Source of the DNA: a virus
DNA length: 36,262 nucleotides
Virus record (IMG/VR): IMGVR_UViG_3300045988_169357
Location: 1 to 36,262 of that record
Reading direction: 5' to 3' (one strand)
The position numbers and the translations under genes were made by a program. Of the stretch, positions 120 to 4,842 are shown in pieces. The notes below the pieces were generated by a model that did no database searches, was not told where the DNA came from, and saw nothing but the letters and a program-made list of their open reading frames with translations. How positions within the stretch are numbered: position 1 is the stretch's first letter; every line of letters begins with the position of its first letter.

Positions 120-633
120 AGAGCCAGGCAAAAGAATTTTAATAGAAACTGCCTTAAAAAGTGGTCTTTCTAAGGAAGAATTGTTTGGGTTAAGATGGTC
201 AGATTTTGATGTAGAAAATAGTACTCTTTCCGTTAAAGTTGTTCGATTATATACAAAAGAAACTGGTATAATAGAAAAGCAACCCAAAGCTCATAGTCGT
301 ATTAGAACAATTTCAATACCTAATTCATTGTGTGAAGCATTAAAGTCTTTTAAAACTAAATTTGATAAGAATGAAGACTACATATTTAAGGACATAAATA
401 TAAATTCAATTGGATCTTGGTTTACAGATTTTCAAAAAAGAAACAATATACGAAAAATCAGATTTCATGATTTGAGGCATACTCATGCAACTTTGCTTTT
501 ATATAAAGGTGTAGATATAAAAACTATTTCTAAAAGATTAGGACATAGTAAAATAGGAATCACAATGGATACATATACAGATGTACTTAAAGAATTGGAT
601 TTATCCGCTTCTCAAAAAATGGATGAAATATAG
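1..633 (+). CDS. int: Tyrosine integrase, C-terminal catalytic part (continues 35649..36262 across the circular junction)
   Basis: The frame is open from nt 1. It contains FHDLRHTHATLLL and LGHSKIGITMDTYTD, the HxxR and catalytic Tyr region of tyrosine recombinases. Nt 1-119 duplicate 36144-36262. Confidence 0.9.
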   Translation, partial: KFDNMESEIQKTKEKGEKKEVINSYTKEEYKSVLELLKKEEPGKRILIETALKSGLSKEELFGLRWSDFDVENSTLSVKVVRLYTKETGIIEKQPKAHSRIRTISIPNSLCEALKSFKTKFDKNEDYIFKDININSIGSWFTDFQKRNNIRKIRFHDLRHTHATLLLYKGVDIKTISKRLGHSKIGITMDTYTDVLKELDLSASQKMDEI

Positions 634-637
634 AAAA

Positions 638-659
638 TTACACCAAAATTACACCAAAA
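638..659 (+). repeat. Two tandem TTACACCAAAA repeats, candidate integrase arm-type sites (left arm of attP)
   Basis: Exact 11-mers at 638-648 and 649-659, immediately after the int stop codon. Confidence 0.5.
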
Positions 660-668
660 CCTAAAAAT

Positions 669-700
669 AAACCGCTGATATATTGAAATATCAACGGTTT
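669..700 (+). terminator. Hairpin after int (aaaccgctgatat...atatcaacggttt)
   Basis: Stem of about 12 bp with one bulge and a short loop. The trailing T-run is weak. Confidence 0.45.
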
Positions 701-712
701 ATTAAATATAAA

Positions 713-732
713 TGGTGCGGATGAAGGGACTT
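713..732 (-). other. Candidate attP core resembling a tRNA 3' end
   Basis: The minus strand reads AAGTCCCTTCATCCGCACCA. This parses as part of a T-loop, a T-stem 3' half (CCCTT), a 7-nt acceptor strand (CATCCGC), a discriminator A and CCA. It lies between the two arm-repeat clusters next to int. Confidence 0.4.
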
Positions 733-802
733 TTGGTTTTTTTTAAAACATTAAAAAGTATTGCAAATACTGGCTTTTATTGTTTTGTACATTTGCTTAA
801 AA

Positions 803-854
803 TTGCACCAAAATGATTGTTTTACACCAAAATTGCACCAAAATCACACCAAAA
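803..854 (+). repeat. Four further T(T/C)(A/G)CACCAAAA repeats, candidate arm-type sites (right arm of attP)
   Basis: ttgcaccaaaa at 803-813, ttacaccaaaa at 822-832, ttgcaccaaaa at 833-843 and tcacaccaaaa at 844-854. All share the orientation of 638-659. Confidence 0.5.
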
Positions 855-981
855 AAGTAGTTATATATTTTTCTATAATTTTATTATTAATGTTATAATA
901 TTTACATATATTGTAATAGCAATTTAATACAATTTTATCAATATTTACTTTCTCAATTTCTTTCAACATTTCTTTTTCCAT
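844..981 (-). CDS. Small hypothetical protein (45 aa), below the ORF-track length cutoff
   Basis: ATG at 981 preceded by GGGAGGAATACAT (strong SD). Translates MEKEMLKEIEKVNIDKIVLNCYYNICKYYNINNKIIEKYITTFLV. No recognisable motif. Confidence 0.3.
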   Translation of the reverse strand: MEKEMLKEIEKVNIDKIVLNCYYNICKYYNINNKIIEKYITTFLV

Positions 982-994
982 ATGTATTCCTCCC

Positions 995-1023
995 TTGACA
1001 AATTTTGTAAGGAACTGTATACT
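995..1023 (+). promoter_or_regulatory. Near-consensus sigma-A-type promoter
   Basis: TTGACA (995-1000), a 17-nt spacer, then TATACT (1018-1023). Confidence 0.55.
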
Positions 1024-1029
1024 CTAACT

Positions 1030-1107
1030 GTTACATTTGTTTAGATTAGAGTAACAATCCTTGAGAGATAGATAAGTTCCAGTTGTCTATCTCTTTTCTT
1101 TTTTTAT
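1030..1107 (+). ncRNA. Candidate small RNA (about 75 nt) between the promoter and an intrinsic terminator
   Basis: No ORF or SD is present. There is a 5' hairpin tgttac(1029-1034)/gtaaca(1051-1056). The terminator stem is 1063-1072/1086-1095, followed by ttttcttttttt. Confidence 0.4.
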
Positions 1108-1117
1108 TATATTTTAA

Positions 1118-1149
1118 TGTCGAAAAAAGTCAAGAAAAATCGTTCGACA
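1118..1149. promoter_or_regulatory. Spo0A-box-like sites upstream of the XRE/Spo0E-like gene
   Basis: TGTCGAA at 1118-1124, a degenerate AGTCAAG at 1128-1134, and an inverted TTCGACA at 1143-1149. The 0A-box consensus is TGNCGAA. Confidence 0.45.
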
Positions 1150-1231
1150 CAAAGCGTTCTCTACCAGCTACATCTAGCACTTTTTTGAATAATTATATAA
1201 AATAATAAGATACTATTTTAAGAGGTATTTT

Positions 1232-1555
1232 ATGTTTATTTTTAGAATTAAAGAGGTTAGAGAAAAGAAAAATATGACTTTATATAAATTAGAAAAAGAA
1301 ACTGGTATTAGTAGAAGCTATTTACACGCATTAGAAAATAATAAAAAAAGCAATCCTTCCTTGGCTACAATGTATAAAATTTCTAATGTATTAGATGTAA
1401 ATATAAGAGATTTATTTTATGCTACAGCAGATATAAATAGTTTAAAAGAAGAAATGTATGCCAGGATAGATAAATATGGTTTAAATTCTCCTGAAGTTAT
1501 GGAAATAAGCCATGTAATAGATTTGTTAATCAATATTGAAATGCAAGAAAAATAA
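1232..1555 (+). CDS. XRE-family HTH protein with a Spo0E-like C-terminal helical domain
   Basis: The N-terminus LYKLEKETGISRSYLHALENNKKSNPSLATMYKISNVLDV looks like HTH_3. The C-terminus LKEEMYARIDKYGLNSPEVMEISHVIDLLIN resembles the Spo0E-family SQELDxLI region. SD AAGAGG precedes the ATG. Confidence 0.7.
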   Translation: MFIFRIKEVREKKNMTLYKLEKETGISRSYLHALENNKKSNPSLATMYKISNVLDVNIRDLFYATADINSLKEEMYARIDKYGLNSPEVMEISHVIDLLINIEMQEK

Positions 1556-1564
1556 TAGAAGAGC

Positions 1565-1768
1565 TTAATACTCTTCTATTTTATACAAATCTGTTAATTC
1601 TACATCTAATGCGTAAGCAATTTTAACTGCATTATTGAATTTTATATTAATATTCCCGTTTTCAAATTTTTCTAGTTCTTTTATGTCCACATCTGCTTTT
1701 TTTGATAGTTCTTCTAATGTAATTTTTTTGCTATCTCTTATTTCTTTAACATTAATTTTTACTTTCAT
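1565..1768 (-). CDS. Small XRE-family HTH regulator
   Basis: ITLEELSKKADVDIKELEKFENGNINIKFNNAVKIAYALDV is an HTH_3 pattern. SD GTAGGAGGA is present. Confidence 0.75.
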   Translation of the reverse strand: MKVKINVKEIRDSKKITLEELSKKADVDIKELEKFENGNINIKFNNAVKIAYALDVELTDLYKIEEY

Positions 1769-1868
1769 TTTTTATCCTCCTACATATATATATATTTCCC
1801 AATTATAAAAAAATATTTTGGCATAGCAATACATTTTAACAATAATATGTATACAACAGTAAAAGAGA

Positions 1869-2015
1869 CTAACTTGCGTTAATCTCTTTCATTTTTGCAT
1901 TTATTAATTTGTCCAGCTTTTTACTTTGTCTCAATATTATGCTATATTCTTTTTCTTCTGTAATTAATTTTTCTAGTCTTGCACGGTTGCGGATTATTAG
2001 CAAGTCTATACTCAT
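1869..2015 (-). CDS. Spo0E-family aspartyl-phosphate phosphatase-like protein (48 aa), absent from the ORF track
   Basis: ATG at 2015 with SD GAGGTG (2021-2026). Translates MSIDLLIIRNRARLEKLITEEKEYSIILRQSKKLDKLINAKMKEINAS. SKKLDKLI matches the Spo0E signature SQELDxLI. Confidence 0.65.
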   Translation of the reverse strand: MSIDLLIIRNRARLEKLITEEKEYSIILRQSKKLDKLINAKMKEINAS

Positions 2016-2056
2016 TTAATCACCTCTATTAATTATAGCATATTATGTTAATTATA

Positions 2057-2075
2057 TGTGTCGAAATTTGTCGAT
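2057..2075 (+). promoter_or_regulatory. Tandem Spo0A boxes upstream of the Spo0E-like ORF
   Basis: TGTCGAA (2059-2065), ATT, then TGTCGAT (2069-2075). The 18-nt block tgtgtcgaaatttgtcga is identical to 18245-18262. Confidence 0.55.
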
Positions 2076-2080
2076 AACTA

Positions 2081-2110
2081 AAAAAAAGACTAGTTTTGCT
2101 AGTCTTTTTT
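2081..2110. terminator. Bidirectional intrinsic terminator after doc
   Basis: The sequence reads aaaaaaa-GACTAG-ttttg-CTAGTC-tttttt. The doc stop codon sits in the stem. Confidence 0.6.
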
Positions 2111-2578
2111 ATATGTTTTATTAATAATTTTAAATAAATTTTTAAACTTACTCATTTTTGATATCCTTATATATGGTTTAATTTTTTCTGTTATTTGTGA
2201 AATTGAACTTTTTTGCTCAACTATTTCTTTAACTAAACTATATAGCTCTTCATTACTACCTCTAATTTTATATCCATTCATTTCTAGGAAAATAAGTGTA
2301 GATATTAGAGCTGTTCTTTTATTTCCGTCATAAAAAGGATGATTCATCGCTAATGATCTTAAATAACATGCTGCCTTATTTATTATATCTGGATACAAAT
2401 CTTGCCCACCAAAACTCTGTTGTGGCTCATATAATGCCGATTTAAATAAGTTTATGTCCTTTATTCCTCTCATTTCATCTTTGTAACGAACCTGGCCTCC
2501 ATATTCACAAAATTTTTCATCTATTACTACCATGTGAATAAAAATTACAAATTCAGGTGTTAAATATTCTACTTCCAT
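2099..2578 (-). CDS. doc: Doc (death-on-curing) / Fic-family toxin
   Basis: HPFYDGNKRTA matches the Doc variant of the Fic motif, HxFx(D/E)GN(G/K)R. A 1-nt TAATG overlap couples it to the upstream small gene. Confidence 0.85.
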   Translation of the reverse strand: MEVEYLTPEFVIFIHMVVIDEKFCEYGGQVRYKDEMRGIKDINLFKSALYEPQQSFGGQDLYPDIINKAACYLRSLAMNHPFYDGNKRTALISTLIFLEMNGYKIRGSNEELYSLVKEIVEQKSSISQITEKIKPYIRISKMSKFKNLFKIINKTYKKD

Positions 2579-2742
2579 TAATTCTTAGATAATTTTTTTA
2601 ATGCTTCTTTAAATCTTATTGCCATTTTTGTTGCCATCTTTTGTTGTTTAGGAGAAATGTTTTTTTGCCAGTCTTCACTTAATCCTAAATCTCTAACAAC
2701 ATATGATGGTATACTATTTAATCTTTTCATCGTCCTTGTCAT
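2578..2742 (-). CDS. AbrB/SpoVT-like antitoxin partner of Doc
   Basis: The likely start is the ATG at 2742, after GAAGGAGGAG. SIPSYVVRDLGL resembles the AbrB/MazE swapped-hairpin motif. It is translationally coupled to doc. Confidence 0.65.
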   Translation of the reverse strand: MTRTMKRLNSIPSYVVRDLGLSEDWQKNISPKQQKMATKMAIRFKEALKKLSKN

Positions 2743-3134
2743 AATTTCTCCTCCTTCTTTTTCCATTACACATCACCTCATATAAATATATTATTCACTA
2801 TGTTTCTAAATGTATTCATAATTAGTAATAATATAATTATATCATAATTTATTATAATGTGCAATTATGTCTACTTGTTGTAATAGATATTTAATATTAT
2901 ATATCATTCTTCGTTACAAATTGCAATGGTTTTATTTCAAAAAATAAAACACGCCTTACAATCGATTTTAAGCCGTTTTTATTTTTAATTAATATAGTTT
3001 TATACCTCTGTTTTAAGGAGGGTTGAGTTTTTTTTAATTTTTTAATTTTCTTTGAAAAAATTGTATATATACTTATTGAATATAAATGTCCCTAATGATA
3101 TATTCATTATATAATAAAAGAAAGGAGGTCACTA

Positions 3135-3473
3135 ATGAATAATCATGATGAAAAAATCCCACATTTTAAATTTGTGGAACTACAGTCAACATTTAAAAAA
3201 TTTTTTCCACCATTAAATAATCAACAATCATTCATATTATTTAATGAACATTTTAATGCTGATAGTTTTGAATATGAAAATGGTTCCCTTTATGAATCGA
3301 TTACTTATTTAATGAATCTTTGTAATGAATCTATTCGAACAAGCTTACAAAATGTATTAACTGATTACAATATTACGGAAAATAATTCATTATCTAATAT
3401 GGATATAAACACATTTAACAATTTAATAAACTCAATAGTTAATATTTCTTTAACAGAAGAAGAGGAGCAATAG
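3135..3473 (+). CDS. Hypothetical protein (moron, opposite orientation to its neighbours)
   Basis: SD AAAGGAGG at good spacing, and a promoter-like TTGAAT..TATATT upstream. No recognisable motif. Confidence 0.6.
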   Translation: MNNHDEKIPHFKFVELQSTFKKFFPPLNNQQSFILFNEHFNADSFEYENGSLYESITYLMNLCNESIRTSLQNVLTDYNITENNSLSNMDINTFNNLINSIVNISLTEEEEQ

Positions 3474-3489
3474 CTCCTTTTCCCCTGTT

Positions 3490-4842
3490 TTATTCTTCTT
3501 TACAATAATTTAAACATATCCAACCACTTGCTGTTTTGCCCCATTTTCCATTTATTTGCGTTACTGTACAAGTTACACCTTTTAAATATCCGTTGTAATA
3601 TTGATTTCCTAATCGTTTATTTTGAACTTTAGCATTAGATGTTAATTGTTTATATGTCTTTGCAGTGTAATTTGTTCCTGCTCCTGTCCTAACGTGTAAA
3701 TTTGCTGTTGTTTTATATGTTCCTGTTGTATAACCTTTAATTGTAATGTTAGAAATAGCTGTAGATGATAAATAGCTATTACTTACCCATCCTGTTGTCG
3801 GATTTGATATTCTACTCCAATTTCTGTTTGTTTCTACTACTTTTACTGCAGTACCTTTTTTCAGTGAACTTATCACAGAACCGTTTGGTGCATTTCTTAC
3901 ATTTAAATTGCTTGATTGTGTTGCTACATATCTAGTATATGTAGCTGTGGCCACATCTTTATCTGTTGAATTAGTTGTATTTACTGAGTTTTCATCATAT
4001 CCGTAACAAAAAAACTGTTTGTAATTTGCATATTTTTTAAAATTATCTACTGTTACATAAACAGTATTACCATTTACAGTTGCTTTTCCTCTTCTTGTAG
4101 ATGTATCAAATTTTCCAGAATACAAATATGGGTCATATATCTTAATTGTATCTCCATCAATTCCATATAAAACTATGTAATGTCCTCCACTTGTGAAAAG
4201 ACCATTTCCACAACTAGAAATTATATAATGATTATTTCTTAATAAGTTTAACATATTATCAAAATTAGATGTTTCAGTATAGTCAATATCAAATTCATCA
4301 GCCACTGCACGATATGCACTCCAATATGTTCCACTATTTGCTGAACGATATCCATTTGCTACAAATGTATCTGCTAATTCTGTTACTGATACATTACCAA
4401 CTATGCTGTCAATTATCATTGCAGCACTTGCCACACCACAACCACTTGTACCTATCGTTTGGCTTGAATTTCCGACTGATGTATATGGATAATATCTCCA
4501 CCTACTATCAATTTGAGAAATATATGTTAATTGAGGTTTGCTACCTATTTTTAAATTCCATTTGTTTGATTTGTCTCCATTATATGCAATCTCTCCTTGA
4601 AGTTCAAAAGACTCATTTTCAACCTCTTGTACTTCCAATTGTTTTTCTTCTTGTTCTGTTCCTTCCGGAATTTCTGTTGTAGATTGGTTATCTACAATAT
4701 TATCTACAGTATTTACAACAGTTTCCACAGAATCGCTAATTTCTTTTACATCTCGTTCACTATAGTTGACTCCAAAAATTGCACTTGACACAGCTAAAAT
4801 AATTGTTACTATTGCAGTTATAATCATTTTTCTTTTACTCAT
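3490..4842 (-). CDS. Endolysin: N-terminal membrane anchor, C39-like cysteine peptidase domain, and C-terminal SH3b-type repeats
   Basis: The TM segment is MIITAIVTIILAVSSAIFGV. Peptidase motifs are QIDSRWRYYPY..GTSGCGVASAAM and GGHYIVLYG. The SH3-like repeats are LNVRNAPNGSVISSLKKGT..WSRI and LHVRTGAGTNY..KWGK. It occupies the last position in the late operon. Confidence 0.8.
   Translation of the reverse strand: MSKRKMIITAIVTIILAVSSAIFGVNYSERDVKEISDSVETVVNTVDNIVDNQSTTEIPEGTEQEEKQLEVQEVENESFELQGEIAYNGDKSNKWNLKIGSKPQLTYISQIDSRWRYYPYTSVGNSSQTIGTSGCGVASAAMIIDSIVGNVSVTELADTFVANGYRSANSGTYWSAYRAVADEFDIDYTETSNFDNMLNLLRNNHYIISSCGNGLFTSGGHYIVLYGIDGDTIKIYDPYLYSGKFDTSTRRGKATVNGNTVYVTVDNFKKYANYKQFFCYGYDENSVNTTNSTDKDVATATYTRYVATQSSNLNVRNAPNGSVISSLKKGTAVKVVETNRNWSRISNPTTGWVSNSYLSSTAISNITIKGYTTGTYKTTANLHVRTGAGTNYTAKTYKQLTSNAKVQNKRLGNQYYNGYLKGVTCTVTQINGKWGKTASGWICLNYCKEE

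Follow-up and report, generated by a model that had tools for sequence, protein, structure and literature searches.

The 36,262-nucleotide viral DNA analyzed here (positions 1 to 36,262 of IMG/VR record IMGVR_UViG_3300045988_169357, called the window throughout) appears to come from a temperate siphovirus-like phage that infects endospore-forming gut Clostridia of low GC and to carry, at the attachment-site end, a sporulation-responsive cargo module with Spo0E feedback; this is a reading in which we place moderate confidence. The proteins concerned are a 107-aa fusion of a SinR-like XRE helix-turn-helix (HTH) to a Spo0E-like two-helix hairpin (1232-1555, plus strand) and a 48-aa Spo0E-like protein (1869-2015, minus strand), and near both genes lie copies of the 0A box, the binding sequence of phosphorylated Spo0A (Spo0A~P), the master regulator of sporulation. 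We infer that these boxes are bound by Spo0A, which thereby activates transcription, and that Spo0A~P is what the Spo0E domains act on. The signature of the Spo0E family is an SxxxD motif with a functionally critical Asp, through which Spo0E inhibits Spo0A (PMC11115286). A first-pass annotation of the sequence had claimed two Spo0E-family domains at these positions, and both open reading frames (ORFs) are indeed present, with SxxxD and a predicted hairpin in each; the assignment of both proteins to the Spo0E family is supported by sequence, by the signature, and by the predicted two-helix hairpin.

The fusion matches HTH_3 at 59.1 bits and PF09388 (SpoOE-like) at 33.8 bits, the latter against a gathering cutoff of 23 bits, and its C-terminal domain alone matches PF09388 at 37.4 bits. 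When C-terminal domains were scanned alone, PF09388 was found in 24/24 (best E 5.7e-13) and SinI in 0/24. The family comprises at least 126 clusters at 90% identity, nearly all with both domains, and the sole name given to it in any source is "helix-turn-helix domain-containing protein"; we found no paper describing an HTH-Spo0E fusion, which agrees with the earlier remark that the architecture was not recognized as a characterized one. In a 64-sequence alignment of the fusion, S93, D97, L98, L99, I100, and N101 are invariant (consensus EISQIIDLLIN), and the signature in this phage reads S93-H-V-I-D97 (..MEISHVIDLLI..). The HTH is nearest to the DNA-binding domain of SinR (E ~1e-12, 40% identity), and full-length SinR (1b0n) aligns over 102 columns, the HTH and two C-terminal helices being common to both proteins. 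The C-terminal profile aligns to the Bacillus anthracis Spo0E-like structure 2C0S over both helices, and the AlphaFold2 model (pLDDT 92) consists of a five-helix HTH followed by a hairpin of H65-82 and H87-106. Foldseek with the 47-aa hairpin returned generic helical hairpins only, none at E<1; with the fusion as query the HTH dominates the matches, and that search is hence no test of the Spo0E fold. Because the domain follows an HTH in a 107-aa protein, we regard the fusion as a new architecture that contains a Spo0E domain and not as a canonical member of the family; by the criterion of a stand-alone protein of ~40-100 aa, the 48-aa ORF fits and the 107-aa fusion does not. The Spo0E domain of the fusion may be a phosphatase, a Spo0A~P sensor, or a mere dimerization element.

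The 48-aa protein (..RQSKKLDKLI.., signature S30-K-K-L-D34) is the product of a conserved gene with 44 homologue clusters of ~47 aa, one of which (P0158) is annotated as Spo0E family by NCBI; the Spo0E of C. difficile has 53 aa (PMC11115286). PF09388 is matched by 17 of 18 aligned homologues (E<=0.01, best E 1.1e-5), and the homologue in the lysogen L097 scores 22.8 bits. Across 18 small-protein sequences the motif Q-S-x-K-L-D-K-L-I-N, including S30 and D34, is invariant; the top PDB match of the family is the B. anthracis Spo0E-like protein 2BZB, and the AlphaFold2 model is a confident hairpin (H2-18 and H23-46, pLDDT 96). An S-x-x-[LI]-D-x-L-I-N helix is common to the 48-aa protein and the fusion. 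When the small family was compared with the fusion family by hhalign, the signature helix alone aligned, at 20% probability, and close paralogy of the two families was rejected because the similarity is confined to this one helix. The 48-aa gene co-occurs with the fusion in a minority of loci, most fusions being without such a partner.

Spo0A~P binds TGTCGAA, the consensus in Bacillus and C. difficile (PMC2731898, PMC3485338); the C. difficile protein has the same specificity, with 102 perfect boxes in a 4.3-Mb genome (PMC3485338), and footprinting in phages phi29 and Nf has shown Spo0A on pairs of boxes separated by 3 bp (PMC2731898). The boxes that the first-pass annotation had located at 1118-1124, 1143-1149, and 2059-2075 are all in place. 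TGTCGAA occurs 6 times in the window (both strands), vs. 1.13 expected, and 0/100 dinucleotide-preserving shuffles reached 6; the degenerate TGNCGAA is not significantly enriched in the window (8 vs. 4.5 expected). Five of the six copies fall in three paired sites: an inverted pair (1118/1143), a tandem pair (2059/2069) whose 2069 member is TGTCGAT and, with its one mismatch, stands outside the six, and a perfect tandem (18247/18257), TGTCGAA-att-TGTCGAA at 18247-18263, which was absent from the earlier annotation. The sixth, at 33517, lies inside an ORF. A scan of the window showed no box near terS or between cI and cro (34652-34837), and the phage genome encodes no Spo0A_C-like or other obvious box-binding protein. 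We also compared every 7-mer, with none singled out beforehand, over the 200 nt that precede the fusion gene in 33 dereplicated loci (fusion homologues 48-77% identical); the most enriched was TTCGACA, the same box read on the other strand, present in 27/33 loci vs. 0.54 expected. Appreciable upstream sequence similarity was seen in one pair of the 33 loci only, and the boxes are common to mosaic phages with differing repressors and integrases.

The 48-aa gene follows a tandem-0A-box promoter (2032-2075, minus strand), ATCGACA(2075-2069)-aat-TTCGACA(2065-2059)-21 nt-TGc-TATAAT(2037-2032), after which come a ribosome-binding site (RBS) and the ATG. A second promoter of this kind lies at 18220-18263 on the minus strand, TTCGACA(18263-18257)-aat-TTCGACA(18253-18247)-21 nt-TATACT(18225-18220). 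The layout of the module is box-N3-box (7+3+7 bp), a 21-nt spacer, and a (TGn)TATAAT extended -10; there is no -35 hexamer at 16-18 nt, and the boxes fall at roughly -34 to -50. Viral contigs contain 113 exact copies of TTCGACA-N3-TTCGACA-N21-TATAAT, where by our own rough estimate fewer than one would be expected by chance for 20 specified bases, and 82/113 of these N21 promoters have the TGn of an extended -10. When spacers of 12-30 nt were allowed, there were at least 120 matches; among the 120 listed, the spacer was 21 nt long in 98 and 20 nt long in 11. On the strength of the counts in the window, the upstream 7-mer enrichment, and the regularity of the promoter spacer, a chance origin of the boxes was rejected. 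The Spo0A~P-activated sigma-A promoters of spoIIG and spoIIE have -10 and -35-like elements 22/21 bp apart and 0A boxes over the -35 region, and promoters that lack a -35 and have an extended -10 usually need an activator.

The module also precedes the Spo0E-like genes of the related loci L001, L002, L004, and L005, those of L037 and L040, which have diverged to <45% identity, and a 58-aa gene in L019 and L024. In other phages the genes after it are small cargo, including Spo0E-like SxxxD proteins; many encode zinc-ribbon or TM2 membrane proteins (MKCPKCGSENV...) like a 95-aa ORF of the window, others encode different membrane proteins, and among viral contigs L099-L233 a 57-58-aa family recurs (MNEAYxKSLQMMKYLKIRLTRKQY..., no Pfam match). 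The cargo of the second promoter in the window (17782-18185, minus strand) is this 95-aa zinc-ribbon membrane protein (17898-18185) and then a tRNA-Trp(CCA) (17782-17855), a unit inserted between head genes; the tRNA is thereby apparently under the predicted sporulation-responsive promoter. The 57-58-aa family and the zinc-ribbon proteins are candidate members of a phage Spo0A regulon.

The first-pass annotation had set both Spo0E-type genes directly behind 0A boxes. This holds for the 48-aa gene, with its tandem boxes at fixed spacing, whereas the wiring of the fusion is more complex than that of a gene behind 0A boxes, since its boxes flank a divergent leftward promoter and the gene has, in addition, an operator of its own. 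The distal box (TGTCGAA, 1118-1124, plus strand) is inverted relative to the fusion gene, and the proximal one (1143-1149, minus strand) reads TTCGACA on the plus strand. The leftward sigma-A-type promoter, TTGACT-16-TATAAT (1106-1133, minus strand; 11/12 matches), is directed toward a 45-aa ORF; its spacer contains one box and the second stands 9 nt upstream of the -35, such that the boxes bracket this hexamer, and the GTCAAG motif is conserved and enriched. Spo0A~P probably represses this promoter.

The operator of the fusion is, in relatives, a clean 17-19-bp palindrome centered 68-70 nt upstream of the ATG, which ends ~2 nt before a weak -35 (TAGAAA-17-TAAAAT in relatives); its degenerate counterpart here is GTTCTCTACCAGCTACA (1156-1172, unstranded), and each locus, as well as the entire 36-kb window, has just one copy of the palindrome. 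Its arms covary with the HTH recognition helix (residues 27-36) in five specificity groups: LSYSYLSE with TTCGC..GCGAA (7/7 loci), ISRAYLxD with TGACGCT..AGCGTCA (3/3), ITRSYLRD with ATGGCTCT..AGAGCCAT (3/3), ISRTY(L/I)RE with GGAAC..GTTCC (3/3), and IARTYLVE and relatives with TGTCGCT..AGCGACA (6 loci). Within a specificity group the arms are fixed and the center varies. We read the palindrome as the predicted autoregulatory operator of the fusion; an RNA hairpin is less likely, given group-fixed arms around a variable center, a position upstream of the predicted -35, and no T-run after it. The TTCGACA boxes stay constant while the adjoining operator changes with the HTH, which points to a conserved trans-acting host factor and not to the fusion. 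In one class of loci (class A, the window and 13 others of several specificities) the center of the proximal box lies 16-20 bp from that of the operator (mode 18); in the window the 1143-1149 box is centered 18 bp upstream of the operator center, and the 1118-1124 box is kept in the class A relatives L010, L017, L023, L025, L028, L031, and L032. In class B loci the boxes lie at 53, 90, and 113 bp from the operator.

A scan of genome collections gave full-length fusion homologues in metagenome-assembled genomes of uncultured, low-GC gut bacteria labeled "Clostridia bacterium" or "Clostridium sp." (for example Clostridium sp. CAG:452) and nowhere else, and wherever the context was readable the gene lay at the prophage end facing host genes. 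In the lysogens L097 and L098, whose lysin and whose island with these genes share 77-78% nucleotide identity with the window, host DNA that begins beyond the prophage end encodes, at a distance of 1-4 kb from that end, a SpoIVB peptidase (272.6 bits) as well as an alpha/beta-type small acid-soluble spore protein (SASP; 99.6 bits). The presence of SASP and SpoIVB, both hallmark endospore genes, in this flank indicates a host lineage that sporulates or did so recently. A tblastn search of the collected loci with Bacillus subtilis Spo0A, SpoIIID, SspA, SpoVT, and SigF gave irrelevant matches in unrelated loci only, and a literature search on the CAG-452 lineage returned Mendelian-randomization papers only. 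Related prophages also lie beside recN (L019, 1688-3361) and beside spoIVB (L097, 7353-8597, and L098), surroundings that in Bacillus form the spo0A neighborhood; spo0A was not found in the parts of those flanks that the collected loci include.

Taken together as a sporulation-responsive module, these elements would work as follows. Rising host Spo0A~P would bind the tandem boxes and switch on the -35-less promoter of the 48-aa gene, and the 48-aa protein would dephosphorylate or sequester Spo0A~P, a prophage-owned negative feedback that would raise the sporulation threshold. The HTH of the fusion would bind the lineage-specific palindrome just upstream of its own -35 and set its own level by autoregulation, and with Spo0A~P and the fusion on adjacent sites (18 bp) the expression of the fusion, and possibly its Spo0E activity, would be coupled to Spo0A~P. 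The same promoter type on the zinc-ribbon and tRNA-Trp unit, and on the small cargo genes of related gut phages, would make up a phage-borne Spo0A regulon. The fusion might further be a DNA-tethered Spo0A~P phosphatase or sensor, whose hairpin contacts the receiver domain of Spo0A~P on the adjoining box; the consequence would be local dephosphorylation of Spo0A~P, or else a change in how the fusion binds DNA, with an effect that is promoter-specific and not on the cytoplasmic pool. We consider this extension of the model improbable.

Several observations weigh against the sporulation-responsive module. The first-pass annotation had asked for a Pfam match in both proteins, and while the fusion gives one to each of its two models, the 48-aa ORF alone scores 20.2 bits on PF09388 (E 5.9e-4), under the cutoff of 23. 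It had also looked to a spore-forming host that encodes Spo0A: the SASP and SpoIVB genes in the flank of related lysogens bear on the former, but they come from hosts of related phages and not of this exact phage, and spo0A itself was not found in the host DNA examined, namely the flanks of the collected loci. The nominal p-values for box enrichment are too optimistic because the upstream regions are related by descent. Activation, as opposed to repression, is predicted because the -35 is missing and from the position of the boxes, which is the sole basis for it. Finally, this lineage has SHxxD where the family usually has SQxxD, and it is in this lineage that the operator is degenerate.

Three other explanations of the same elements have to be weighed. 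The two proteins could form a SinR/SinI-like switch in which the fusion hairpin only oligomerizes or binds a partner and the Spo0A~P-induced 48-aa protein is an anti-repressor, neither of them touching Spo0A~P. The closeness of the HTH to the SinR DNA-binding domain and the 102-column alignment with full-length SinR invite such a comparison, as do the need of a 65-aa HTH for a dimerization element if it is to bind a palindrome, the helix motif that the 48-aa protein shares with the fusion, and the activation of sinI by Spo0A~P. The C-terminal domains are, however, Spo0E-like in every case scanned and SinI in none; the signature Ser and Asp are invariant in both families, although pure helix packing would not need them; the profile-profile similarity of the two families amounts to one helix at 20% probability; and the small gene lies beside the fusion in a minority of loci only. 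On this evidence we think a switch of that kind unlikely.

Alternatively, TTCGACA could be bound by a factor other than Spo0A, a conserved host or phage-shared regulator, in which case the promoters would report another state, such as phage late or lysogenic control. Such a factor would accord with spo0A not being seen in the host DNA and with Spo0A binding to these boxes being a prediction, and the phage does encode a DUF1492 (ArpU-like) activator and several HTH proteins. Against this, the box is the exact 7-bp Spo0A consensus in the 7+3+7 tandem that Spo0A footprints, it is repeatedly linked to Spo0E-family genes, it is missing near terS and cI/cro, where phage regulators should act, and it is common to mosaic phages with different repressors and integrases; we give this explanation little probability. 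The DUF1492 late activator in particular was rejected as the box-binding factor, there being no box near terS. A third possibility accepts Spo0A and reverses the sign, so that Spo0A~P would shut the cargo genes off at the onset of sporulation and no feedback loop would exist. At the fusion locus the leftward promoter does have a box in its spacer, where repressors classically act, and Spo0A represses phage promoters in phi29 and Nf; the tandem-box promoters, in contrast, have no -35 at 16-18 nt, an extended -10, and boxes at ~-34 to -50, an arrangement that usually requires an activator, and repression of the cargo genes seems to us very unlikely.

Both proteins resemble Spo0E, YisI, and YnzD of Bacillus and Spo0E of C. 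difficile (PF09388; 2C0S, 2BZB) in the two-helix hairpin and in SxxxD with its invariant Asp, and the 48-aa protein is similarly small; unlike them, the copies in the window are phage-encoded, one is fused to a DNA-binding domain, and the gene of the small one follows tandem 0A boxes of consensus sequence, through which Spo0A~P would feed back directly. The comparison with SinR/SinI and SlrR/SlrA of B. subtilis extends to the whole plan, an XRE HTH (that of SinR being the closest to the fusion HTH) with two C-terminal helices and a small protein that shares a helix motif and whose gene responds, or here is predicted to respond, to Spo0A~P, yet the C-terminus of the fusion is Spo0E-like (0/24 SinI) and its operator is lineage-specific, single, and at its own promoter. 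With spoIIG and spoIIE the tandem-box promoters have in common the lack of a functional -35 at normal spacing and 0A boxes at -35 to -50. The tandem boxes of the window differ in matching the consensus fully or almost fully, from which a low Spo0A~P threshold would be predicted.

Among phages, stand-alone spo0E genes have been described in Brevibacillus phages (PMC4909266), and spo0E HMM matches in the Gut Phage Database and beside phage quorum-sensing receptors (bioRxiv 10.1101/2021.07.15.452460). What these cases share with the window is a Spo0E gene, presumed to manipulate the initiation of sporulation, on a temperate phage or prophage whose host forms spores; those genes are stand-alone and under predicted RRNPP peptide-receptor control, whereas here we find 0A boxes and an HTH-Spo0E fusion with its own operator. 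Phages phi29 and Nf likewise use consensus 0A boxes, including pairs 3 bp apart, to make phage transcription respond to Spo0A~P, but in these lytic phages the boxes serve to repress replication and the early promoters, such that the genome is trapped in the spore (PMC2731898). The phage of the window, by contrast, is temperate and has no boxes at the lysis-lysogeny switch; its boxes replace the -35 of cargo promoters (predicted activation), and its cargo is predicted to act back on Spo0A~P. Entrapment of the phi29 type would call for boxes at early lytic promoters or the origin, and there are none in 34652-34837 or near terS. A literature search gave no description of a phage spo0E under 0A-box control, of the tandem-box promoter class, or of an HTH-Spo0E fusion. 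Phage manipulation of sporulation initiation and phage-borne spo0E are thus already known; what is new is the fusion architecture and a widespread, searchable regulatory module.

The window ends with the same 119 bases with which it begins (1-119 = 36144-36262, an exact terminal overlap), from which we conclude that it is a complete circular phage genome of ~36.1 kb; its GC content is 28%. Megablast of 600-3600 against 50,697 GenBank phages gave no match and hence no close relative. The integrase gene is split across the window ends (35650-36262 joined to 1-633), and before it lie a cI-like repressor (HTH_3 / Phage_CI_repr), an ImmA-like Peptidase_M78, and a divergent cro-like HTH. The remaining genome, on the minus strand, encodes replication and recombination genes, the DUF1492 (ArpU-like) late activator, terminase, head and tail genes, holin, and a Peptidase_C39_2 / SH3 lysin (3490-4842, minus strand). 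The ImmA-like ORF (35179-35600) has only 107 aa, covering profile positions 2-98 of 123, and coding-like sequence continues beyond its stop, which may be a frameshift or a truncation. Among the structural genes, Phage_min_cap2 (minor capsid protein 2, 18425-19507) is fused C-terminally to an ADP-ribosyltransferase (ART) exoenzyme domain (PF03496, 35 bits) and could be a virion-delivered ART.

The attP core (708-732, minus strand), when reverse-complemented, gives the 3' end of a tRNA-Leu(TAG) gene, and over 25 nt it matches the intact tRNA-Leu with which the prophage of the integrated relative L090 adjoins its host; comparison of the integrated L087 (a 137-kb contig) with the free L088/L089 puts the junction between int and the small ORF that lies upstream of the fusion. 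The core is flanked on either side by CACCAAAA repeats (640-660 and 810-850), probably arm-type sites of the integrase. The segment holding the attP core, the terminator, and two of the CACCAAAA repeats is inverted relative to L090. The island had been called int-proximal, which is true of the circular map only: because attP separates int from the island, the island comes to lie at the opposite end of the prophage in the lysogen. There it adjoins host DNA beyond the lysin, which is the classic position of lysogenic-conversion cargo.

The island also holds a small divergent ORF of 45 aa with a good RBS (844-981, minus strand), toward which the leftward promoter is directed and in whose place relatives carry an ORF of 44-54 aa; an ORF of 112 aa without assigned identity; and a 67-aa XRE HTH protein (1565-1768, minus strand) with its own promoter, TTGCTA-16-TATAAT at 1829-1802, found in some relatives only. 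A Phd-like / Doc (Fic family) toxin-antitoxin pair (2099-2766, minus strand) adjoins the 48-aa Spo0E-like gene, and a bidirectional terminator (2082-2110) lies between the phd-doc operon and the spo0E promoter. Homologous pairs occur at the same place in L015 and L031, and in other relatives the position is taken by MazF, PIN, HicB, or SocA-like genes. On the other side of the fusion, a terminator hairpin, GAGAGATAG..CTATCTCTC with a T-run (1063-1095, plus strand), has a stem that is kept in L010, L014, L017, and L023, and 40 nt before it stands a strong near-consensus promoter-like site, TTGACA-17-TATACT (995-1023). These two elements could constitute an insulating terminator at the prophage end, or could yield an RNA of ~75 nt antisense to the 5' leader of the 45-aa ORF. 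A known RNA family in the island was rejected, Rfam at E<=1 having given one spurious U7 match only.

Sporulation governs the survival and the passage from host to host of many gut Firmicutes, and the interplay of prophages with that decision is largely unknown. Apart from the model itself, the analysis yields an architecture of SinR-like HTH and Spo0E domain with a predicted operator for each lineage, and short DNA probes for the DNA-binding domain of Spo0A. If the sporulation-responsive module is real, a searchable metagenome signature for "sporulation-responsive phage cargo" would be at hand; a large group of gut phages would read host Spo0A~P directly through a promoter module of which there are at least 113 exact copies, and some of them would use that module to express Spo0E-type inhibitors, closing a phage-owned loop on the master regulator of sporulation.

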